Source of the DNA: a virus
Virus record (IMG/VR): IMGVR_UViG_3300012931_000015
Coordinates: 1 to 64,000 of that record
Direction: 5' to 3' (one strand)
DNA length: 64,000 nucleotides
The stretch's first letter is position 1. Every line of letters begins with the position of its first letter. The notes below the pieces were generated by a model. The model searched no databases. It saw nothing but the letters and a program-made list of their open reading frames with translations, and was not told where the DNA came from. A program made the translations under genes and the position numbers. This document shows, piece by piece, positions 10,286 through 26,363 of this stretch.

Positions 10286-11443
10286 ATGATTGATGTTTTT
10301 ACAGTTTTAAATAGATTAGGTATTAAATATTCTACAACCAATTTAAAACGAAATCAGTTATGGGCTTTATGTCCTTTTCATAACGATACTAAAATTGGAT
10401 CATTTTCAATTAATATTGAAACATGGGAATATAATTGCTACTCATGTCAAACCGGAGGCAAAAGCCCTGAAAACTTTGTATCAAAATATCTTAATATTTC
10501 TTACAAAGAAGCTAAAAAATGGCTAGAAGATCAAAATCTAAGTGTTGTTAATTATGGTGATTATACAGATAATATTTTTGAAAAACAGAAAAAAGAATTA
10601 GAAGAAATTATTAAAGATGATTCTAAAAAAAATAATATTGATTTTTTACCTGATGCTGATAAACTCGAAAAACTTTTTGCGGATAAGTTTTATTATTTGA
10701 AAAGTCATAATATAAATCAAATATTTATTGATACTTTTAAATGGTTTTTTTGTACTTCTGGATATTACAAAGATTTTATAATTATTCCAATTTATTATAA
10801 TAAGCGTCTTGTAACTTTTGAAGCTAGAAAATTATTAGAATATGAAAAATTATGTGAGTATTATGATGAAAGATTTTATGATATAAAAGATCAGTTTGAT
10901 GAATTAAAAGAAAGATTTGAAAATGAAAATTTTAAAATAGTAAATAAAGATAATAAAAAAATGTTATTGAAAAATGATGAAAGTTTTTTTGTAGAAGATA
11001 AAAATAAATTTTTTATAATTAAATATTTGTTGATGCCTAAAGTTTTATACCCGACTGGCTCTACAATAAAAGAATATATTTATAATCGGGATAAACTCGA
11101 TAACTCAAAAACTTTACTTTTAGTTGAAAGTAGTAGTAGTGTTAGTAATATTTGGAATAATGTAAGTGAAAATGTTACTTGCGTATTCGGAGCAAAAATA
11201 TCTGATATTCAAATAAAGCTTTTAGGTAATTTTGAAAATATAATTTTTTATCCTGACATAGATGAAGCCGGACTAATTTTAACTGAAAAGCTTATGCGAT
11301 TTTGTTTAAGCTGTATAAGTGTTGTAGAAGTTGAAAAAGTTGAAACTGCTAAAAAAGAAGATTTATTAAAACAAGCAGAACCTATCGGAAAGTTTGTATT
11401 TAGAAAATTAAGAGAAATATATAAAAGTAAAAAAGATGAATGA
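10286..11443 (+). CDS. DNA primase (CHC2 zinc finger + TOPRIM)
   Basis: CPFHND...CYSC zinc finger; LLLVES and YPDIDEAG TOPRIM motifs. Confidence 0.85.
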   Translation: MIDVFTVLNRLGIKYSTTNLKRNQLWALCPFHNDTKIGSFSINIETWEYNCYSCQTGGKSPENFVSKYLNISYKEAKKWLEDQNLSVVNYGDYTDNIFEKQKKELEEIIKDDSKKNNIDFLPDADKLEKLFADKFYYLKSHNINQIFIDTFKWFFCTSGYYKDFIIIPIYYNKRLVTFEARKLLEYEKLCEYYDERFYDIKDQFDELKERFENENFKIVNKDNKKMLLKNDESFFVEDKNKFFIIKYLLMPKVLYPTGSTIKEYIYNRDKLDNSKTLLLVESSSSVSNIWNNVSENVTCVFGAKISDIQIKLLGNFENIIFYPDIDEAGLILTEKLMRFCLSCISVVEVEKVETAKKEDLLKQAEPIGKFVFRKLREIYKSKKDE

Positions 11444-11456
11444 TTTAATAATTTTA

Positions 11457-12797
11457 GGTAACTATATATAATAAAGCACTAAATAATATATAATAAAGAC
11501 TTTTTATATTATTTGTTACTAATAATATTATGGAAAATATGAAATTAGTTGAGAGACACAAAATATTAAAAGATAACCCCAACTGGAAAAAACTAGATTA
11601 TTTTTCTTTTATTTCAAAAAATTTATATAATCAAGCATTATTTTATATAAAACAAACTTATTTAGAGACCGGAAAATATTTAAGATATAATGCAGTAGAA
11701 AAATACTTAAGAAAAGAGAATAACGAAAATTATAAAATACTTCCAAATAATACAAGTCAACAGATTTTAATGCTTTTAGATAAAAATATTAAATCATTTT
11801 TTCAGTTACTAAAAAAATATAAAAAAAATAAGAAATCTTTAAATGGATGCCCCAAATTTCCAAAATATAAAGATAAGGAAAAAGGTAGGAACATACTAAT
11901 TTTTACTTCTAATCAGTTTAGATTGAAAGATACTTTTATTCATTTTCCTAAAAAAATGAATTTAAAACCAATAAAAACAAAAGTTAAAGAAAATATAAAA
12001 CAAGTTAGAATTATTCCAAATTCATCTTGTTATGTTATAGAAATAGTTTATGAATATAAAAAGGAGGATAAAAATTTAAGTAAAGATAATTATATGAGTA
12101 TTGATTTAGGTGTTAATAATTTGTGTGCTATAATAACTAATCAACCTGAGTTAAAACCAATTTTGATTAATGGAAAACAAATTAAATCTTTTAATGCTTA
12201 TTTTAATAAAAAATTATCAAAAGAAAAATCTCAATTAAAAAAGAACCATAATAAGGATACATCTAAAAAAGTTCAGAGAATGTATTTATATCGAGAGAAC
12301 TGGATTAGTAATTACTTGCATCATGTTTCTAAAATTATTATTCAATATTGTATTGACAATAGCATAAAAAATATAATTATAGGAAAAAATAAAGAGTGGA
12401 AAACTAATTTAAATATTGGAAAAGTTAATAATCAAAAGTTTGTAATGATTCCTTATGATAAATTGATTAAACAAATTCAATATAAATCTGAAAAAATTGG
12501 CATTAATGTAATTATTCAAGAAGAGAGTTATACTTCAAAAATAGATCATTTAGTTTTTGAAGAAATGAAACATCAAAAAAAATATTTAGGAAAGAGAATA
12601 AAACGAGGTTTATTTCAGAGTTCAACTGGAAAAGCAATAAATGCAGATGTAAATGGTTCTGTTGGAATTTTAAGAAAAGTAATCGGAGATTCTTTTGTAA
12701 AAAAGATATTCGATATAGGATTTGGGTATAATCCAGTTAAAATTAATTTTAACGAATATAGAAATTTTGTTTTAGGGCAAAAAAGTATATAGTTACC
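11457..12797 (+). mobile_element. non-autonomous IS1595-ended element carrying TnpB
   Basis: TIRs GGTAACTATATA...GCACTAAA (11457-11483) and reverse complement of 12771-12797; perfect 8-bp TSD TAATTTTA at 11449-11456 and 12798-12805. Confidence 0.85.
11530..12792 (+). CDS. tnpB: TnpB RNA-guided nuclease (rearranged RuvC-II type, no Zn finger)
   Basis: SIDLGVNN, IIIG (G at the usual Glu position), QEESYTSK (alternative Glu), INADVNG. Confidence 0.92.
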   Translation: MENMKLVERHKILKDNPNWKKLDYFSFISKNLYNQALFYIKQTYLETGKYLRYNAVEKYLRKENNENYKILPNNTSQQILMLLDKNIKSFFQLLKKYKKNKKSLNGCPKFPKYKDKEKGRNILIFTSNQFRLKDTFIHFPKKMNLKPIKTKVKENIKQVRIIPNSSCYVIEIVYEYKKEDKNLSKDNYMSIDLGVNNLCAIITNQPELKPILINGKQIKSFNAYFNKKLSKEKSQLKKNHNKDTSKKVQRMYLYRENWISNYLHHVSKIIIQYCIDNSIKNIIIGKNKEWKTNLNIGKVNNQKFVMIPYDKLIKQIQYKSEKIGINVIIQEESYTSKIDHLVFEEMKHQKKYLGKRIKRGLFQSSTGKAINADVNGSVGILRKVIGDSFVKKIFDIGFGYNPVKINFNEYRNFVLGQKSI

Positions 12798-12933
12798 TAA
12801 TTTTATTTGACATTTTTTTAAAATTATGCTATTTTTTAGCTGTGTTTGCTATCATGGGGTATATAGTATTTGGAATACTTATTATTGGATTTATAATAAT
12901 TTTTGTTTACAAACAACATAAAAAGAAAAATAT

Positions 12934-13404
12934 ATGAAACTACAAAAAATAAAATATATAGGTAAATCAGAATTAAAAGGTAATAAAATAATTACTGATA
13001 TAAGTTTTGTTACTCCTGAAAAAAGAAAAGCAATAGAAGATTTTTTTAATAATGATTTTGTTATATCAGAGCATGAGATAGTTAAAGCAGGAAATAAAAA
13101 GTTAAGGTCTTATGAACAATTAAAATTATGGTTTCAAATTATTGATGATATTTTAATTTGGATGAGAGAGCCAAACACGACTGAAAATAAAATGGCTTTA
13201 CATGAATCCCTTAAACGATATTTGCCTACACAATATGTAAAATTAAACGGTGAAGATTTTCCATTACCTAAAAGTATAAGTGATGATGCAGAAATACCTA
13301 TGGAAGATTTTACACAAACTATTTCTAAAATACTTGAAGACTTTAGAATGGAAGGTTGTGAGTTTTTAGTTGATAAAGTTGAAATTTGGGGTAAAATTAT
13401 TTAA
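12934..13404 (+). CDS. NinB/Orf-like recombination protein
   Basis: KLRSYEQLKLW...HESLK...KSIS...EDFTQTISKI resembles the NinB pattern. Confidence 0.45.
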   Translation: MKLQKIKYIGKSELKGNKIITDISFVTPEKRKAIEDFFNNDFVISEHEIVKAGNKKLRSYEQLKLWFQIIDDILIWMREPNTTENKMALHESLKRYLPTQYVKLNGEDFPLPKSISDDAEIPMEDFTQTISKILEDFRMEGCEFLVDKVEIWGKII

Positions 13405-13807: not shown

Positions 13808-14209
13808 ATGAAAGAAAAGAGATGGACTACAAGTAATAAATCTATATATAATATAGGGTATCATTTAATTTGGTGTCCAAAATATAGACGAAAAGTTCTA
13901 ACTGGGGAAATAGAAACAAAATTAAGAGAATTATTAAAAGAGAAATCAAAAGAATTAAATGTGGAAATAAAAACTTTGGAAATTATGCCAAACCATATCC
14001 ATCTATTTGTTAAAGCTACTCCTGTTGATAGCCCACATTTTATAGTGCAACAATTAAAAGGATATACTTCTAGGGTATTGAGAAATGAGTTTAAAGAATT
14101 GAAAAGTAAACTCCCTACACTTTGGACTCGAAGCTATTATTGTGAGTCAGTGGGTCATATATCTGAAAATATTGTTAAAAAATATATCGAGGATCAAAAA
14201 AATAAATGA
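13808..14209 (+). CDS. tnpA: IS200/IS605 Y1 HUH transposase
   Basis: YHLIWCPKYRR, HIHL (HUH), LWTRSYY, KKYIEDQ. Confidence 0.97.
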   Translation: MKEKRWTTSNKSIYNIGYHLIWCPKYRRKVLTGEIETKLRELLKEKSKELNVEIKTLEIMPNHIHLFVKATPVDSPHFIVQQLKGYTSRVLRNEFKELKSKLPTLWTRSYYCESVGHISENIVKKYIEDQKNK

Positions 14210-15327
14210 AAACTTATTGTTATAAATTATATAATAATAAAAATCTCAAATATTTAAATAATCAAATAAATATAGCCGGAAATATTTATAATTATTGTAT
14301 AAATATGTATAAAATGTATTATAAGTTATATGGTAAATCATTAAATATTTTTCAACTACAAAAACATTTAACTAAAAAGAAAAAATATTTTAAATACTGG
14401 AATGAATTAAACTCTCAAACTATTCAAGATATAACAGATAGAATAGGCAGAGCTTATCAGTTATTTTTTAGAAATCTAAAACATAAAATAAAAACTGCCC
14501 CACCTTCTTTTAAAAAATCTAAAAAATATAAATCTATTACATTAAAACAAACAGGGTATAAATTATTAGAAAATAATAAAATTAAAATACAAAATAAAAT
14601 ATTTAAATATTCAAAAAGTAGAGACATACAAGGTAATATTAAAATAGTAACAATTAAACGAGACAATTTAGGAGGTTTTTATATATATATTGTAACTGAT
14701 TTTGTTGATTCAAAACCTACCATGACGGGTAAAAGTGCAGGTTGTGATTTTGGATTAAAAACTTTTTTAACATTATCGGACAATATTAAAATAGAATCAC
14801 CTTTGTTTTATAAACAATCACAAAAAAAATTAAAGAAATCTAGTCAGTCGTTATCATCAAAAAAGAAAGGAAGTAATAATAGAAAAAAAGCTATATTAAA
14901 TTTTGCTAGAATTCACCAAAAAATATATAATAAAAGAAAAGATCATCATTTTAAATTAGCAAAAGAATTAACCCAAGATTATGATTATCTATTTTTTGAA
15001 ACTCTTAATTTAAAAGCAATGCAAAGATTATGGGGTAAAAAAATAAGTGATTTAGGGTTTTATAGTTTTTTAAAAATACTTGAATCACAGGGTAATAAAT
15101 ATAATTGTAAAATACATTCTATTGAAAGATTTTTTCCATCTTCAAAACTTTGTTCAAAATGCGGGCAAATTAAAAAAGATTTAAAATTATCAGATAGAAT
15201 TTATAAATGTGATTGTGGATTAGAAATTGATAGAGATTTAAATGCATCTCTAAACATATTAAGAGAAGGGGCATCTTCTCTTGGAGTAGAATTTGTAAGA
15301 CCAGCGATAGTTGGCAAATTTTGTTGA
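14206..15327 (+). CDS. tnpB: TnpB RNA-guided nuclease
   Basis: GCDFGLK, FETLNL, CSKCG/CDCG zinc finger, DRDLNAS. Confidence 0.95.
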   Translation: MKTYCYKLYNNKNLKYLNNQINIAGNIYNYCINMYKMYYKLYGKSLNIFQLQKHLTKKKKYFKYWNELNSQTIQDITDRIGRAYQLFFRNLKHKIKTAPPSFKKSKKYKSITLKQTGYKLLENNKIKIQNKIFKYSKSRDIQGNIKIVTIKRDNLGGFYIYIVTDFVDSKPTMTGKSAGCDFGLKTFLTLSDNIKIESPLFYKQSQKKLKKSSQSLSSKKKGSNNRKKAILNFARIHQKIYNKRKDHHFKLAKELTQDYDYLFFETLNLKAMQRLWGKKISDLGFYSFLKILESQGNKYNCKIHSIERFFPSSKLCSKCGQIKKDLKLSDRIYKCDCGLEIDRDLNASLNILREGASSLGVEFVRPAIVGKFC

Positions 15328-19347: not shown

Positions 19348-19476
19348 ATGTTTGCAAAAATATGGTGTCTTATAGTAATGGGTTTTTTTGGTATTTATCT
19401 TAGTTTAAACTCTTTTAATATTAAGTTAAATGAATTTTCTTTAACTGATAATATTTTAGGTAACTATATACATTAA
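19348..19476 (+). pseudogene. small membrane protein truncated by the IS1595 left end
   Basis: MFAKIWCLIVMGFFGIYL...TDNIL reads into the TIR (GNYIH*). Confidence 0.5.
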
Positions 19477-19570
19477 AGCACTAACTCAAAAATATCCTTA
19501 AAATTTAATTGATTTTATAAAGTATTTTGTATTATACTTCTTTTTGTTTCAAGAAAGGAAGTATAAAATT

Positions 19571-20533
19571 ATGGGTAAAATTAAAATTGGGGATGTTGTT
19601 TTTCTTAAAAGTAATCCTGAATTTAAAATGACTGTGGAAAAAGTTGTTGACAAAGAGGCAACATGCTCATGGATTAATAACGGTAAACCGGAGTCTAAAA
19701 ACTACAATATTAACCTACTAGAAAAATATATTAATAATAAAAAAGAAATAAAAAATAACTACAAAATAAAAAAGTCATATAAGAAATTTAGCAGTTCGAC
19801 AATAATACTATGTATTCTTGTTTTTATTTTACTTCTTGCAGTAATCATATTTATACCCTTTTCTTTTAATAAAATTCAATCATGTCAAGACAACTTAAAA
19901 AATGCTTATGATGTTTTTAAAGATTTAACAACAATTTTAATAACTATTTTTACTATTTTTTTTACAATAATGATTGCTATAGGTGGAGTTATTTTAAAAA
20001 AAATATTACTTGATGATGTTAAAACGGAAATTGTAACTATAAACGAAAACTGGTTATATGAGTGTAAATGTGAAATACAAAGAAAGTTTGCTTATATATT
20101 TGATGAATTATACTACCAAGCCGAAGAATTAAAAAAAGATAAAAAAGAAATATATTTAAATTTAGCACTTAAATATAGCAAGTTGTCTATGAGTAATGCC
20201 GAAAAATTACCAGAAAAAGAATATCGTCAAAAAATGGATAGTTTAAATAATTATTTAATGACATTAGCTCTAAAAGGTGATAAAAACGATACAAAAGAAG
20301 CTTATAAAAACACTCTTATACTGGAAAAACTAATTGAAAAAAATTATAATAAATTAGATTTTATTGAGGATATTCAATATTATGAAGAAACTATCCAATT
20401 TGCTCGCGCAAGGTTACCGAGAGAGAACTCTAAAGATAAAGAAAATGCAATTCTTGATTTTAAAATAAAGCTTTCAACTAGTCCTGAATATGAATCTTGG
20501 GAAACGCGGTGGAAATTCTTTGAATTATTTTAA
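19571..20533 (+). CDS. YodC/DUF2158-like domain fused to 2 TM helices and a helical domain
   Basis: IKIGDVVFLKS.P..KMTVE...CSW motif; two hydrophobic segments. Confidence 0.65.
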   Translation: MGKIKIGDVVFLKSNPEFKMTVEKVVDKEATCSWINNGKPESKNYNINLLEKYINNKKEIKNNYKIKKSYKKFSSSTIILCILVFILLLAVIIFIPFSFNKIQSCQDNLKNAYDVFKDLTTILITIFTIFFTIMIAIGGVILKKILLDDVKTEIVTINENWLYECKCEIQRKFAYIFDELYYQAEELKKDKKEIYLNLALKYSKLSMSNAEKLPEKEYRQKMDSLNNYLMTLALKGDKNDTKEAYKNTLILEKLIEKNYNKLDFIEDIQYYEETIQFARARLPRENSKDKENAILDFKIKLSTSPEYESWETRWKFFELF

Positions 20534-20716
20534 TCTATTTTGCCTGCTTCAAAAACTTGCATAAAATAAACCTCTCTTATAAAAATCAATTCTCTTTAAA
20601 TAAGAATACAACAAATATAAATAAAAATCTATCCTATTTTACAGTTTTTTTATTTATATTTATTATTCAATTTTTCGGCACAAAAGTATAAATAAGTAAG
20701 AATTTTAGACTAAATT

Positions 20717-20851
20717 CTACTTTTTTACAGTTTTATCAGGCTTAATACTCAATAAAGCCCTTAAAGTATTGTTAAAATTTGTTTTTATTTTAATCTTTTC
20801 CTCGTATTTTGACTTATTTTTATCTTCTTTATTAGTATCAATATTTTTCAT
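20717..20851 (-). CDS. 44-aa ORF translationally coupled to the IS1595 transposase
   Basis: ATGA overlap with the transposase stop; MKNIDTNKEDKNKSKYEEKIKIKTNFNNTLRALLSIKPDKTVKK. Confidence 0.45.
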   Translation of the reverse strand: MKNIDTNKEDKNKSKYEEKIKIKTNFNNTLRALLSIKPDKTVKK

Positions 20852-21792
20852 TTACCGATTAATCCTTTGTAGCTTAATCTACCATAACATTTTGAAAGCA
20901 ATAATTCAAACTTTTCATTAGAATTTAATTCCATGTTATTGTATCTAAAAGCTAAAGTATTCAAATATCTGTTTATATGTTTTTCACTCATCAAGTGGTA
21001 AATTCCTATAAACATTCTTTTGAATAATGACCAGTATCCTTCAATTGTATTTGTATGAATATTACCATTAACATACTGACCCTTACTATGTTTTATAAAC
21101 TGATGCTTAAAATAAAATCCGAGATTGTTATAGCCTAACCACTCATCTGTAAATACTTCATTGCCTTTTTCGACATTATTTTTTACTTCATTCATTAAAA
21201 CTCTACTTGAAACATTATTTATTTTATAAGCTCTTACTTTTGCCGGAGAAGTTTCAGTTTTTCTCTGCATGAATCCTAAGACAGCAGTTTTTTCATCAAC
21301 ATTTCTACCTTGTGTTCCTACTATTTTTTTATCTTTATGTTTGTTTTTATTTTTACCGCCTATGTAAGTCTCATCGATCTCGACAGGCTGATTAAATTTG
21401 CTTTCAGTCTCAATAAAGTTTTCAGTAGCGTATCTTATTCGATGAGCTAAAAACCAAGCTGTCTTTTGAGTTATTTTTAAATCTTTTGATAACTGAATAC
21501 TTGAAATTCCTTTTGAATGAGTAGTTAATAAAAATATTGCCATAAACCATTTGCGGAGCGACAATCTTGTTTCTTCAAAAATAGTATTTGTTTTAACATT
21601 AAACTTTTTTAAACAGGTAGAGCATTTATAAGTTTTATGATCTTTTAACTTCCAGATTTTATGAGTGTTTCCACAATGTGGACAAACAACTCCGTCTTTC
21701 CATTTAATATTTTCGAGGTATTTATAACAATCTAATTCGGTTTTGAATGTTTCAACTAATTGTAATATGCTATTAAATCTAAAATTAAACAT
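20848..21792 (-). CDS. IS1595-family DDE transposase
   Basis: CPHCG...CSTC Zn ribbon, VEIDETYIGG, FTDEW, HTNTIEGYWS, FRYN; GAGG RBS before MFNFRF. Confidence 0.95.
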   Translation of the reverse strand: MFNFRFNSILQLVETFKTELDCYKYLENIKWKDGVVCPHCGNTHKIWKLKDHKTYKCSTCLKKFNVKTNTIFEETRLSLRKWFMAIFLLTTHSKGISSIQLSKDLKITQKTAWFLAHRIRYATENFIETESKFNQPVEIDETYIGGKNKNKHKDKKIVGTQGRNVDEKTAVLGFMQRKTETSPAKVRAYKINNVSSRVLMNEVKNNVEKGNEVFTDEWLGYNNLGFYFKHQFIKHSKGQYVNGNIHTNTIEGYWSLFKRMFIGIYHLMSEKHINRYLNTLAFRYNNMELNSNEKFELLLSKCYGRLSYKGLIGK

Positions 21793-21836
21793 ATTTAACC
21801 TCTTTATTATAAATATCATTTTACTATTATAATCAC

Positions 21837-21852
21837 AATCTGTCGACAGATT
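21837..21852. promoter_or_regulatory. 16-bp palindromic operator over the transposase promoter
   Basis: AATCTGTCGACAGATT perfect palindrome; minus strand TCGACA-17-TAAAAT. Confidence 0.5.
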
Positions 21853-21941
21853 TGTATATAATTTACAATTTATTTACATTTAAAATAAGACATTACATTC
21901 TATTATTATAAGTACTAATATTTAAATAAGGGGTGTCTTTA

Positions 21942-22127
21942 ATGTTTAAAATAGATGATACAGTAATGTTAAAATCTGGTAGTCCTAAATTGCAGATAAT
22001 AGATTTTGGGAAAAAATCCGGTGATTTAATATGTTTATATGTTGATAAAAAAAAAGAGATACATTACTTAATAGCTTCCCCAGAAGAAATTATTCCTTTT
22101 TCCAATGTTGAAGTTCTTCAGGGGTAA
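21942..22127 (+). CDS. YodC/DUF2158-like small protein
   Basis: MFKIDDTVMLKSGSPKL. Confidence 0.65.
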   Translation: MFKIDDTVMLKSGSPKLQIIDFGKKSGDLICLYVDKKKEIHYLIASPEEIIPFSNVEVLQG

Positions 22128-22314
22128 AAAATTTTTCATGAACACAATCATATTTGTCTGTCCAAATACACAAAATGTCTCCTTTAGAGGCAAAAGATTG
22201 CAATGCTGACAATTTTGTTAAAAATGATGATTTTTCTGAATCATATATTTCTTTTACTGTCATTTTAGGATTTCCGCTCTTTAGTTCAACAACATCACCA
22301 ATTTTAAATTCCAT
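22090..22314 (-). CDS. YodC/DUF2158-like small protein
   Basis: MEFKIGDVVELKSGNPKMTV...CIW...F.PEEL. Confidence 0.75.
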   Translation of the reverse strand: MEFKIGDVVELKSGNPKMTVKEIYDSEKSSFLTKLSALQSFASKGDILCIWTDKYDCVHEKFFTPEELQHWKKE

Positions 22315-22510
22315 AAATACTCCTTATTTCTTTTTATAATTAGTCTTATCAATTTTATCCTGTGTCAACTTTTGAAAAAGATAATCATTAATATCTTTTA
22401 TGCCTAATTCTTCTAATAGTTTTATAACTTCTAATTTTATTCTTACCTGTTTTGATGGATTATGATAAATCATAGAATGATGATAATTAAAAGAAATGAA
22501 AAATTCAAGA

Positions 22511-22747
22511 TTATTTTTTAAATATAATTGATATTATCTTTTCTACTGAAATATTAAAGGCTTTAGATAATTTTATAAATGTTGAAAGTCTAGGGTTATT
22601 TACTTTTTTAAAACTCTCAAGATTCTGAATTTGTTTGTAATCTATAGTAGATATTTCTGATAATTGTTCTTGAGTTAAATTATTTTCTTTTCTCTTACTT
22701 TTTATAAATTTCGCCAATCTGTTACTTATATTATCTAAATTGTCCAT
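22511..22747 (-). CDS. XRE-family HTH regulator
   Basis: IKSKRKENNLTQEQLSE...IQNLE...NPRLSTFIKLSKAF. Confidence 0.85.
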   Translation of the reverse strand: MDNLDNISNRLAKFIKSKRKENNLTQEQLSEISTIDYKQIQNLESFKKVNNPRLSTFIKLSKAFNISVEKIISIIFKK

Positions 22748-22842
22748 TAATAATTATTATAAAAGCATAATTTATTTATTGACACCTATTATATTAGGTG
22801 TTATATTTTTTTCATCATTTTTTATTTAAAAGGAGTTAATTT

Positions 22843-23556
22843 ATGGCTTTAAATTCTAATGAGAAATCAGAAAAAAGTAGGTTAATAACATTTCTATTAG
22901 CTTTCTTTTTTGGCTTTTTTGGCGTTGATCGCTTTTATTCCGGTAAAATAGTATCAGGAATCTTTAAATTATTAACACTTGGAGGAATATGTGTCTGGTG
23001 GATAATTGACTGGATTATGATTCTATCTGGAAATTATAAAGACAAGTGGGGTAAATTTATTACTAATTGGGAAGCGGACAGGAAACAATTAATTATTGTT
23101 TCTTCAATAATAGGTTTCTGTTTACTTTTAACTATTGTTGGTTTAGCCGGAGATAATAAAACTACTTCCACAAGTGCAGATTTAGCCTCTAGTAATACTA
23201 CTGCTTCTACTAAAAAGGATAAAAAAGTAGAGACAATAAAAGTTAATGCTATTCAAATTTACAATGAATACAAAGAAAATGAAGTTTCAGCAGATAAAAA
23301 ATATAAAGGAAAACTAATTGATGTATCGGGAGAAGTTGATAAAATTGGTAAAGACATTATGGATAATCCCTATGTTTCATTAGTTACTTTAAAAAATAGT
23401 ATAATGAATTTAAGTATGGTTCAATGTAGTTTTAATTCTGATAAATCTAATGAATTAGCTTTATTAAAAAAAGGTACAAAGGTAATAATAAGAGGAGAAG
23501 GAAAAGGTTCTATGGCTACAATTGTAGAAATAGGAAATTGTGAATTGTTAAAATAG
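22843..23556 (+). CDS. TM2-domain membrane protein with C-terminal OB-fold (tRNA_anti-like)
   Basis: KSRLITFLLAFFFGFFGVDRFY.GK...WWIID; YKENEVSADKKYKGKLI.VSG.V. Confidence 0.8.
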   Translation: MALNSNEKSEKSRLITFLLAFFFGFFGVDRFYSGKIVSGIFKLLTLGGICVWWIIDWIMILSGNYKDKWGKFITNWEADRKQLIIVSSIIGFCLLLTIVGLAGDNKTTSTSADLASSNTTASTKKDKKVETIKVNAIQIYNEYKENEVSADKKYKGKLIDVSGEVDKIGKDIMDNPYVSLVTLKNSIMNLSMVQCSFNSDKSNELALLKKGTKVIIRGEGKGSMATIVEIGNCELLK

Positions 23557-23573
23557 TCTCAAGAATTTAATAG

Positions 23574-23608
23574 GAGCATTAGCAAATAATTATGTTAATG
23601 CTCTTTTC
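23574..23608 (+). terminator. intrinsic terminator
   Basis: GAGCATTAGCA...TGTTAATGCTC followed by TTTT. Confidence 0.55.
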
Positions 23609-23624
23609 TATTAAGGAATTATAA

Positions 23625-24113
23625 ATGAAAAAAATAATAGTTTTATTAATTATGTTAATGTTCTTATTTTCTATTTATTCTCAATCAAAAGAGAAAATTA
23701 AAGAATATGATGACACAGTAATGAAGTTTTTAAATAAAAAATATCCAGAATTTAAAAATTATTTCGACAAAACTGTATATTTTGAAAACGGAGAAGAATT
23801 ACATAAGTTTTTTGAATTTTTTAGACTTCCTATTTTATCAAAAAATCCAATTAGTGGGCAAAAAATGGAATTTAACATTAAAAAAGATTTAGAAAAAAAT
23901 AATATTATCACCGTTGAAATAAATTTAAATGAATCAAAGTTATATTTTTCATATACAATTTATAAAGACAGAGTGTCAATTATTAAATTGAGTGATGGAT
24001 GGCAAGTTAATCCCGAAAACTGGAAATTAATGTATTTAATCATAAGAAATACTATGATTGTTTATCCAGAAAAAGATTATTTTGATACTGATTTAATTAA
24101 TAGTTTGAAATAA
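23625..24113 (+). CDS. secreted hypothetical protein
   Basis: Signal peptide MKKIIVLLIMLMFLFSIYSQ. Confidence 0.65.
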   Translation: MKKIIVLLIMLMFLFSIYSQSKEKIKEYDDTVMKFLNKKYPEFKNYFDKTVYFENGEELHKFFEFFRLPILSKNPISGQKMEFNIKKDLEKNNIITVEINLNESKLYFSYTIYKDRVSIIKLSDGWQVNPENWKLMYLIIRNTMIVYPEKDYFDTDLINSLK

Positions 24114-24175
24114 GTTCTTGCTTATTACTTGTAAATTCAATATTATAAAAAACAAGGAAGGAGGAAATCTGCTAT

Positions 24176-24442
24176 ATGGAATTAATTATAACTTATGATT
24201 TAGATGAAGATGATAATCATGCTGAATTTAAAAAAGAATTAATTAAATTCTTTGAAGGAAAAGAAAGAGAAGTTGAAAACTGGATGCCCGATTCTACAAT
24301 AATTGTTAAAACGAATAAAAAAGGCATTGCTAAAGAATTAGGAGATAAATTAGTTCAACATTTTGATAATACTCAATTTAATATAAAGAAAATTGTTCTA
24401 GGTATTTTATCAGATTTTGACTATTTAGGTTCAGAAGATTGA
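24176..24442 (+). CDS. small Cas2/VapD-like ferredoxin-fold protein
   Basis: MELIITYDL N-terminus, 88 aa, strong RBS. Confidence 0.45.
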   Translation: MELIITYDLDEDDNHAEFKKELIKFFEGKEREVENWMPDSTIIVKTNKKGIAKELGDKLVQHFDNTQFNIKKIVLGILSDFDYLGSED

Positions 24443-24633
24443 TCTTCTGTTTCTGAATATTCCATCATGCGATGACCAGAAAATTTTCTAGGTTTTTTAA
24501 TAAACCAAGAATCCTGATTCTTAATAAAATGAATTAAAAGTTTAATTTTTGTTTCATTATCAGCATTTATATATTCATCTTTTAATAAGACTTTTTCGGC
24601 TAAGTATTGTTGCAAAGTACCTTCTTTAATCAT
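24421..24633 (-). CDS. hypothetical protein, convergent overlap
   Basis: AAGGAAG RBS; 3' end overlaps 24176-24442. Confidence 0.45.
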   Translation of the reverse strand: MIKEGTLQQYLAEKVLLKDEYINADNETKIKLLIHFIKNQDSWFIKKPRKFSGHRMMEYSETEDQSSEPK

Positions 24634-24745
24634 TTTTGTCTTCCTTTTAATTTAAATTTTTTACTTGACATTGAAGCTTTCTGCATTATCATGCTAATAT
24701 ATAAACAGAAAAAGGGGGAAATCTTTTAAAAATTGGAGTCCTATT

Positions 24746-24826
24746 ATGGATTTTAATATCATTAAACTGTTTATTCTACTTATAGAAATCGCTTTAACTA
24801 TAATTGAATTGTTGTCAAAAAGATAA
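24746..24826 (+). CDS. 26-aa hydrophobic peptide, type I toxin-like (copy 1)
   Basis: MDFNIIKLFILLIEIALTIIELLSKR; GGAG RBS; 5'/3' complementary mRNA ends. Confidence 0.55.
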   Translation: MDFNIIKLFILLIEIALTIIELLSKR

Positions 24827-24981
24827 TAATTAACAGATAATTGTTTATAGATAAAAGATATAAAAGATAAATGATTTATTTATCCCTCCTCCTTTTCTGT
24901 ATTTTAATTAGTATTCTATTTTTTGTTACAATAAAAATATTAAAAACTAGAAGGAGGAAATACATATTTTAGGAAATCAAA

Positions 24982-25062
24982 ATGCTAATAACCATATTAA
25001 AAATTTCTCTCATCTTATTGCATATCTTATTATTCATACTCGAATTATTTTATAAAAAATAA
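24982..25062 (+). CDS. 26-aa hydrophobic peptide, type I toxin-like (copy 2)
   Basis: MLITILKISLILLHILLFILELFYKK; AGGA RBS; 5'/3' complementary mRNA ends. Confidence 0.55.
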   Translation: MLITILKISLILLHILLFILELFYKK

Positions 25063-25294
25063 TTCATAATAGATAACAGATAAATGTTAAAAGATAAATG
25101 ATGTTCCTTATCTTCCTTCTAGTATATTAAAATACAATAACTAAATAATCTAAATTTTTCTTCTCTATATATTTTTCTTCTTTATTTTATTATAATTTTT
25201 AACTACAATATAAAAAATAAAGGAGTTGATATAAAATAAAAAAGCTAATAAAAACAGTGCTTCATGAAATATCTAAAAAACATTTGGAGGAAAA

Positions 25295-25552
25295 ATGGAA
25301 AAATTATGTATCTTCACATATGATATAAAAAACGCAAAAGACGAAGATTTAGGCAAAATAATTAAAATACTTTTTAAATTAAAAGCTACTAAAATTCAAG
25401 ATTGTGTTTATGTATTTAAAGATAATAGAAATGCCAAAGAGCTAATAAAATTATTTGAAAAAATTTGTAAAAAAGAAACTGATAGAATATTTATTGCAAA
25501 ATCTTCAGATTGGTCAAGCCTTAATCCTCTGATTGATCTAAAGAATTTCTGA
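25295..25552 (+). CDS. Cas2-like small protein
   Basis: FTYDI...KIQDCVY...DRIFI resembles Cas2 YDI/RIQxSV/D.I motifs. Confidence 0.55.
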   Translation: MEKLCIFTYDIKNAKDEDLGKIIKILFKLKATKIQDCVYVFKDNRNAKELIKLFEKICKKETDRIFIAKSSDWSSLNPLIDLKNF

Positions 25553-25739
25553 TATACTTATTAAGAAATTCTTCCCATACTTCGGGATTTTCTTTACCCT
25601 CGAAAGTAAACTCCACTATCTTTCCACTTTCAAATATTATTTTCCCATCAGTTGTTATTCCTTTATACCCCAAACCATATTTTATTTCTTTAACAATATC
25701 ACCCGGTTCAGGGATACCAGAGGTGTCATTTAATGCCAT
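25521..25739 (-). CDS. hypothetical protein, convergent overlap
   Basis: AAGGAG RBS; 3' end overlaps 25295-25552. Confidence 0.55.
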   Translation of the reverse strand: MALNDTSGIPEPGDIVKEIKYGLGYKGITTDGKIIFESGKIVEFTFEGKENPEVWEEFLNKYIRNSLDQSED

Positions 25740-25816
25740 TTTTTCTCCTTTCTATTTTTTTTATTTATGATTTTTTATTAAAAATATAATTTAGTGCTTT
25801 AATGTATATAGTTACC

Positions 25817-26039: not shown

Positions 26040-26199
26040 ATAAATATGTAGTAGACATTTTAAAAAATTCAACTAAAAATAGTAAGTTTGATACTGAAAA
26101 GTAAAAACCAGTAAAATTCTTTATTCTATTTTAATAAACAAATAAACTAAAATTCCCCAAAATTTCAAACATTTGCCTTTTTTAATTACTAATAGAAAA

Positions 26200-26334
26200 T
26201 ATATACCTACGGAACATAGGGATTTTAAGCCTGTGGAGAAATAAACCTCTGAACTTGAAAAAGTTAAATTTTTTAGGTTTAAGTTATGTTTCTGTGAAAC
26301 AGGAAGCTCACAACTCTAGTTGTGGGTAGTTCAC
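26200..26334 (+). ncRNA. orphan TnpB omegaRNA / IS605 right end
   Basis: Encodes only a TnpB-type tail IPTEHRDFKPVEK*; GAAG + hairpin CTCACAACTCTAGTTGTGGG + TAGTTCAC end; no tnpB body upstream. Confidence 0.75.
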
Positions 26335-26363
26335 TAATAAAGTGATTAATATAAGGAAATACT

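Follow-up and report, generated by a model that had tools for sequence, protein, structure and literature searches.

The first 64,000 nucleotides of IMG/VR virus record IMGVR_UViG_3300012931_000015 (the window, to whose full length coordinates refer unless another locus is named) carry a 1341-bp cassette, at 11457-12797, in which a gene for a TnpB nuclease lies between inverted ends of the type found in the insertion sequence family IS1595. These ends, together with the 8-bp target duplication around them, show the cassette, at the level of its sequence, to be a non-autonomous IS1595-family derivative. Considering all of the observations below, the explanation that we regard as probable is that the cassette is mobilised in trans by an IS1595 transposase, that the guide of its guide RNA (omegaRNA) consists of the duplication plus flanking sequence, and that TAA serves as the target-adjacent motif (TAM).

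Architecture of the cassette

The window makes up the first 64 kb of a linear viral record of 163.6 kb, which is approximately 74% complete, with a G+C content of 26%. AT-rich and phage-like, this viral contig has genes of bacterial type. Both inverted ends of the cassette are tipped GGTAACTATATA; the left terminal inverted repeat (11457-11483, plus strand) begins GGTAACTATATATAATAAAGCACTAAA, and the reverse complement of the right end (12771-12797, minus strand) begins GGTAACTATATACTTTTTTGCCCTAAA. A perfect 8-bp duplication, TAATTTTA, flanks the cassette at 11449-11456 and 12798-12805, and at the base composition of the window the chance probability of such an 8/8 match between the flanks is about 8e-5. 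The only long open reading frame (ORF) within this cassette is tnpB (11530-12792, plus strand, 420 amino acids), the TAG stop codon of which (12790-12792) falls inside the right end, 5 bp from the right tip. No transposase is encoded. The 12-nt tip GGTAACTATATA occurs four times in the window, i.e. at the two cassette ends and at the two ends of a second, longer unit at 19459-25816. Compared over 27 nt, the left end of the cassette agrees with one and the other end of that unit in 24/27 and 25/27 positions, and the right end in 21-22/27. An earlier, sequence-only reading of this DNA had described a 1341-bp unit with terminal inverted repeats and a perfect 8-bp duplication, an intact tnpB with its stop codon within the right repeat, and a left repeat resembling that of an IS1595 transposon at 19459-25816, and all of these claims hold. 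A scan for promoters and terminators was uninformative in such AT-rich DNA (16 sites against 15.7 expected).

It may be asked whether the cassette is an ordinary IS200/IS605- or IS607-type tnpB unit, moved by the Y1 transposase encoded at 13808-14209 or by a serine recombinase, with its inverted ends and duplication being coincidental. A complete IS605 unit (Y1 TnpA plus TnpB) is indeed present at 13808-15327, and distant cellular relatives of the cassette TnpB directly follow IS607 serine recombinases. However, members of those families make no inverted ends and no duplications (PMC13565253, PMC6188088). The cassette has the ends of IS1595 elements, and inverted ends with duplications are present at many sites of independent insertion, for one of which an empty allele exists. 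The cassette does not belong to IS200/IS605, as it has inverted repeats and a duplication and contains no Y1 gene, nor to IS607, as neither the cassette nor its viral clade has the upstream serine recombinase arrangement. This explanation is already contradicted, and we give it next to no credence.

Related cassettes and an empty site

Relatives of the TnpB were collected by an alignment-based search of viral contigs; a peptide-pattern search with the single protein yielded nothing. Related cassettes of 1317-1349 bp with the same kind of ends are found on other phage contigs, with 34 distinct flank pairs among them. Perfect duplications are present in 15 of the 34, differing in sequence from one another; their length is 8 bp in thirteen cases, 9 bp in one and 7 bp in another. 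Besides the window cassette, twelve sites have a perfect 8-bp duplication. The cassette with the closest homologue (locus L005, 75% identity) lies in a different context and has the duplication TAATATAA. For the cassette at L033, the insertion site is empty in a complete 108-kb sister phage genome (G005), where the flanks are contiguous and AGGAAATG is present as a single copy. The sequence-only reading had proposed collecting other insertions by BLAST and looking for 8-bp duplications and empty alleles, and both have now been found. Relatives of the cassette are thus shown, by comparison of flanking sequences, to be inserted at many different sites in phage genomes.

The junctions of the cassettes seem to be hypervariable. 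The same left flank combined with different right flanks, or small insertions and deletions exactly at the junction, can be seen in the sets L036/L045/L052, L041/L042/L044, L217/L050, L294/L296 and L384/L391, and L041 has a repeat of its terminal pentamer following the right tip (TTACCTTACC). At the left junctions of L005, L217 and L037, upstream ORFs of 79-145 codons extend into the cassette as far as a TAA or TGA within the left tip (GGTAA.. or GGTGA..), so the repeat supplies a stop codon to genes that have been clipped at their 3' ends. A 2132-bp composite is found at L049 (5112-7243), where the right end of the cassette is paired with an additional left repeat located some 810 bp upstream. 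The outer pair is flanked by a 7-bp duplication, AAAAGTA, and the structure is either nested or two-part.

A transposase probably acting in trans

The unit at 19459-25816, which starts about 6.7 kb downstream of the cassette, is a 6.36-kb IS1595-type transposon with perfect 26-bp inverted ends and the same end tips as the cassette. It carries a full-length ORF (20848-21819, minus strand) for a 323-amino-acid IS1595 (ISXO2-like) DDE transposase with an N-terminal zinc ribbon (Pfam DDE_Tnp_IS1595, PF12762, 5.5e-41; Zn_ribbon_IS1595, PF12760, 1.2e-13). Acidic residues that are invariant in an alignment with five relatives include D148, D224 and E259. Tips of the form GGnnnyTATATAC and 8-bp duplications are found in 32/32 transposase-bearing metagenome relatives with definable ends, in agreement with the earlier statement that IS1595 elements make 8-bp target-site duplications. 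Related tips and 8-bp duplications also occur at the transposase loci L176 and L177 of viral contigs, and an end-motif scan of these contigs added two further transposase-bearing elements, L233:5708-8778, consisting of the transposase and three small ORFs, and L196:2924-5179. The right end of cassette L047 and the left end of the transposase-bearing L233, which belong to another phage lineage, are identical over a perfect 30 nt.

The cassette TnpB was found inside an IS1595 transposase-bearing element in none of 80 transposase loci and at none of the TnpB loci. In addition, an IS1595 transposase is absent from four carrier phage genomes that were searched whole, two of which are complete, indicating that the transposase acts in trans. 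The shared ends and duplication length strongly suggest that an IS1595 DDE transposase supplied in this way moves the cassette. Judging from its location in a transposon with the same tips, the gene at 20848-21819 is the likely source of the transposase in the window phage; other phages would obtain it from the host or from another element.

Elements of this family also carry other passengers. In the 19459-25816 unit they lie on both sides of the transposase gene, and comprise a protein with TM2 and tRNA_anti-like OB domains (22843-23556), a Cro/C1-type helix-turn-helix protein (22511-22747, minus strand) and a Cas2-like protein (25295-25552; PF09827, 1.6e-7). The IS1595 element L196:2924-5179, which has the same tips, has an N6/N4 DNA methylase as passenger (PF01555, 2e-27).

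The TnpB protein and its relatives

The tnpB product matches OrfB_IS605 (5e-18) and Cas12f1-like_TNB (1e-8) in Pfam. In an alignment of 31 sequences, D192 (RuvC-I), G285, E332 and D373 (in the NADxN motif of RuvC-III) are invariant and E331 nearly so, and the CxxC..CxxC zinc finger is lacking from the TnpB lineage of the cassette. When aligned to Cas12f with profile hidden Markov models, G285 falls on the canonical RuvC-II Glu, and the EE pair stands just before a TS(Q/K) motif. E331/E332 would be the alternative RuvC-II Glu of a putative rearranged active site. A Gly-for-Glu rearrangement of RuvC-II has been described for RIIr TnpBs and for Fanzors (PMC10691335, PMC13565253). The rearrangement had been proposed from the window sequence (G at the usual Glu, with the catalytic Glu in EESYTS), and both the alignment and the Cas12f profile support it, the glutamates being placed as in rearranged TnpBs and Fanzors. 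An AlphaFold model of the protein (predicted local distance difference test score, pLDDT, 87) has its best fold matches in Cas12f, the TnpBs of ISFba1 and ISDra2, and a mimivirus Fanzor2.

Distant cellular relatives, at 38-46% identity, are found in cyanobacteria, Ktedonobacter and archaea, and in 22 distant cellular loci an IS607 serine recombinase directly precedes the TnpB. In a quick tree most cassettes with IS1595-type ends fall into a viral clade (Shimodaira-Hasegawa-like approximate likelihood ratio test, SH-aLRT, support of 96) in which there are no recombinase-linked genes. As the labelling of ends on this tree is incomplete, we do not claim a single capture.

A second TnpB lineage, this one with a CxxC zinc finger, also occurs in an IS1595-type shell, as 1331-bp cassettes (L236:1076-2406, L266:2635-3965 and loci L383-L426). 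Most copies in this lineage are without an intact duplication.

A predicted RNA structure ending at the right tip

Folded as single sequences, the final 130 nt of divergent cassettes give the same series of hairpins from different primary sequences. The single-sequence fold of the window cassette gives the same helices as a covariance model of 39 pairs in five helices that was built from one other cassette group. This model matches tnpB 3' ends in other groups, and in the window its match covers 12677-12797 (plus strand, 27.4 bits, E 1.3e-3), overlapping both the tnpB 3' end and the right repeat. In cassettes with IS1595-type ends, including that of the window, the match ends exactly at the right tip. 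Compensatory changes are found in 35/39 scaffold pairs, and paired cells amount to 89.8%, against 68.7% in shuffles and 35-47% with partners slid, these counts being inflated because the alignment was fitted to the model. The last helix includes the inner part of the right inverted repeat as its 3' strand, which fits the suggestion of the sequence-only reading that the right end has been remodelled for use in RNA.

Two mini-elements of 334-336 bp (L254:174-507 and L284:2234-2569) match the full-length module at approximately 85 bits. They have the same inverted ends and perfect 8-bp duplications and carry no tnpB; being non-coding, they nevertheless keep the helices through compensatory changes. 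In both, if read in the direction of the RNA, TAA or TTA adjoins the left duplication.

These observations moderately support identification of the RNA module as the omegaRNA scaffold of TnpB. An omegaRNA running through the right repeat had been proposed from the window alone, and the predicted scaffold, whose helices covary, does cross the right end and stops at the tip. As the scaffold ends exactly there, at 12797, the guide would be made up of the duplication and the right flank: the right copy of the duplication (12798-12805) would provide guide nucleotides 1-8 of a predicted guide TAATTTTATTTGACATTTTT (12798-12817, plus strand), for which the length is assumed from known TnpB systems. 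In addition to the end position of the scaffold, the sharp drop in similarity at the right tip among related cassettes is consistent with this boundary.

Applied to a plain MAFFT alignment, RNAalifold found no more than a single 5-bp helix; this weak result is due to the helices differing in sequence between groups, which makes a covariance model necessary. No Rfam family matched 11300-13000, and the covariance model for the scaffold in the IS1595 shell has no match at 26186-26360 of the window.

A one-sided motif next to the left duplication

The pentamer TTTAA at 11444-11448 (plus strand), with its core TAA at 11446-11448, is directly 5' of the left duplication and had been put forward as a candidate TAM. 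Comparison of 28 independent left flanks shows that this position carries a TAA that is kept across independent insertions. At positions -11 to -9 from the left end, T is present in 24/28, A in 23/28 and A in 27/28 flanks. TAA starts at -11 in 19/28 flanks, compared with at most 2 at any other position outside the duplication and 7 at the first base of the duplication (-8), the first three bases of which are also biased, to W-A-A. Within the TnpB clade of the window, 14/15 cassettes have TAA directly 5' of the left duplication, and in the clade of 1344-1349-bp cassettes TAA or TTA is found in 10/11. For the zinc-finger lineage of TnpB in such shells, the left-flank motif is not TAA but AAA then T. 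Transposase-bearing IS1595 elements have TAA at this position in 3/31 cases (Fisher p 3.8e-6), with the qualification that these control elements come from other environments and have transposases that are 38-48% identical, so that a clade-specific target preference may contribute to the difference.

Two simple explanations of the motif were rejected. It does not act as an upstream stop codon, as this is the case in 0/28 flanks (considering upstream ORFs of at least 60 codons), and it is not a symmetric transposase target motif, as the right side shows no mirror image of it.

A less simple one is that the IS1595 transposase moves the cassette, and that the one-sided TAA is a target preference of a transpososome assembled on two unequal ends, TnpB having no role in where copies are located. 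The cassette ends do differ internally, with 21-25/27 matches to the autonomous ends and a remodelled right end, and both the W-A-A bias within the duplication and the distance and different habitats of the control elements are compatible with such a preference. On the other hand, in the second TnpB lineage, which uses a shell of this kind too, another motif occupies that position; the transposase-bearing elements in which TAA is so rare have near-identical tips; and a scaffold ending at the right tip would require the TAM to be precisely at the place of the motif. We therefore consider target preference of the transpososome to be unlikely as the origin of the motif. The change of motif with the TnpB lineage points instead to a TAM, and a one-sided, lineage-specific motif at the position required of a TAM is good, if indirect, evidence that TAA is used as such.

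It could also be imagined that TnpB bound to TAA recruits the IS1595 transpososome, which then makes its staggered cut beside the motif, so that the choice of target would be directed by the protein and not by the guide. Nearly all cassettes with still-perfect duplications adjoin TAA or TTA, and the distance is fixed at 8 bp, as recruitment would predict. Against this, there is no sign of an interaction, the predicted catalytic residues are conserved, as expected of a nuclease, and the gene-less mini-elements also adjoin TAA or TTA, an association that selection after insertion would explain equally well. We know of no precedent for target recruitment of this type outside CRISPR-associated transposons, and recruitment seems to us a very improbable explanation.

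A possible homing mechanism

RNA-guided cleavage, use of the TAM and mobilisation are functions that we infer from sequence comparison, and they can be combined as follows. The IS1595 transposase would insert the cassette and duplicate 8 bp of target. Transcription of the omegaRNA through the right end would then give a guide consisting of the duplicated 8 bp and the right flank. Such a guide would match the uninterrupted empty allele, in which TAA precedes the target and would act as the TAM. The filled allele would be protected, since its left junction shares no more than 8 nt with the guide, and the bases before its right junction are ACC instead of TAA. Finally, empty alleles in co-replicating or co-infecting phage genomes might be cleaved and then repaired by recombination from the cassette copy, so that the cassette would spread or be retained, i.e. 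homing. Homing of this kind would explain why the insertions that survive are those next to TAA.

In a broader form, to which we attach somewhat less than even chances, TnpB cassettes with IS1595 shells in phages would be RNA-guided homing drives between co-replicating genomes. Guide nucleotides 1-8 would be those of the 8-bp duplication, and spread would be limited to insertions directly after the TAM of the lineage (TAA, or AAA then T). Several TnpB lineages would have colonised the shell independently, each with its own site signature and gene-less, guide-only mini-elements.

A number of observations weigh against the account preferred here, of a trans-mobilised cassette that takes its guide from the duplication and flank. 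A cut-and-paste transposase already breaks the donor site, and the benefit of TnpB is less obvious than in IS605 (PMC13565253). About half of the related cassettes are without an intact duplication and the right junctions vary oddly; the simple model does not account for these missing duplications and variable junctions. The empty site of the window cassette itself was not found when viral contigs were searched with an exact 30-mer of the reconstructed site, and relatives of the primase-like gene upstream of the cassette were not found in the viral contigs either. The flanks of the 6.36-kb unit, ATATTTTA and TATTTTTA, do not form a perfect duplication. The covariance match in the window is modest (E 1.3e-3, from a rough calibration), and the inflation of the pair counts and the remoteness of the control elements, noted above, count in the same direction.

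Relationship to known systems

The closest described systems are those of Altae-Tran et al. (2023, PNAS; PMC10691335), who report six DDE-associated TnpB branches (DDE-1 to DDE-6) with inverted terminal repeats, together with solo TnpBs that have the same ends. As in the DDE-associated branches, the TnpB of the cassette is within an inverted-repeat transposon and the tnpB 3' end is near the transposon end. As in the solo TnpBs, the ends are common to transposase-bearing elements, with mobilisation proposed to be in trans, and the inverted terminal repeats around tnpB were found here to match those of an element bearing a DDE transposase. As in the RIIr branches, RuvC-II would be rearranged, with Gly at the canonical Glu. 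Unlike those branches, the transposase and this TnpB were never found within one element here, and the cassette lineage has no zinc finger. The sequence-only reading thus set the novelty of the arrangement too high, given that DDE-associated and solo TnpBs with inverted repeats were described in 2023. The principle of the arrangement has been known since then, and the IS1595 shell is an added case of it. The DDE partner families named for TnpB in the relevant part of a 2026 review are ISL2, IS630 and IS1031, with IS1595 not among them there (PMC13565253), and our literature search, which did not extend to the supplementary tables of PMC10691335, found no paper on carriage of TnpB by IS1595 or ISXO2.

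The cassette also has much in common with Fanzors. Like Fanzor2 and Fanzor1 in eukaryotic cut-and-paste transposons (PMC10711439, PMC3627910, PMC13565253), it has a putative alternative RuvC-II Glu, and Fanzor2 is among the fold matches of its TnpB. The two share an IS607 ancestry and capture by transposons with inverted ends and target duplications. Inverted repeats and duplications are built into the guide RNAs of Fanzors (Yoon et al. 2023, PMC10711439), and here too an inverted repeat is folded into the predicted guide-RNA scaffold, with the duplication at the start of the target. Unlike Fanzors, the cassette is found in phages of prokaryotes and not in eukaryotes or their viruses; its protein, of 420 amino acids, has no eukaryotic extensions; its shell is IS1595; and its 8-bp duplication is of variable sequence, so that the TAM would lie outside the duplication and not form part of it. 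The cassette is not a Fanzor, although by analogy it would work like a Fanzor-bearing transposon.

Compared with ISDra2 and other TnpB-omegaRNA systems of IS200/IS605 (PDB 8H1J, 8EXA), the protein has the same fold (template modelling score, TM, 0.69 normalised to 8h1j), and the predicted layout of the RNA is alike, in that the scaffold overlaps the tnpB 3' end and stops at the right boundary, the guide comes from the flank and the TAM is beside the left end. The cassette differs from IS200/IS605 elements in having no Y1 transposase, asymmetric hairpin ends or scarless single-strand excision, and in making a duplication on insertion; it differs from ISDra2 in its putatively rearranged RuvC-II and absent zinc finger. 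With IS1595 insertion sequences (ISXO2-like) it shares the tips of the inverted ends and the 8-bp duplication, and passengers are common in these elements, as in the window unit and L196. It differs from them in being without a transposase and in having as cargo a putative RNA-guided nuclease with its guide scaffold.

What the present analysis adds is a phage that has both partners, an allele without the insertion, a set of control elements against which to judge the flank motif, and a second lineage of TnpB that uses the same shell. The window is unusual in that the matching transposase-bearing unit is only 6.7 kb away. According to the 2026 review, pairings of DDE transposons with systems of obligate mobile element-guided activity (OMEGA) are rare in prokaryotes, and the question is raised of what a guide-RNA nuclease adds to a cut-and-paste element (PMC13565253). 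The cassette family is abundant in phage contigs and, with its matched transposase-bearing elements, empty alleles, guide-only derivatives and lineage-specific flank motif, offers a compact natural system in which to address that question. In addition, it is a counterpart in prokaryotes of the process by which inverted-repeat transposons of eukaryotes captured IS607-type TnpBs and from which Fanzors arose. Practical value is smaller, and lies in a compact TnpB without a zinc finger and with a short predicted TAM.

A neighbouring IS200/IS605 unit

Approximately 1 kb downstream of the cassette, at 13808-15327, the window carries a classical IS200/IS605 unit, in which the gene for the Y1 transposase (13808-14209; Y1_Tnp, 4e-40) overlaps that of a second TnpB (14206-15327), which is of the zinc-finger type. 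One phage thus carries TnpBs of two transposon architectures side by side.

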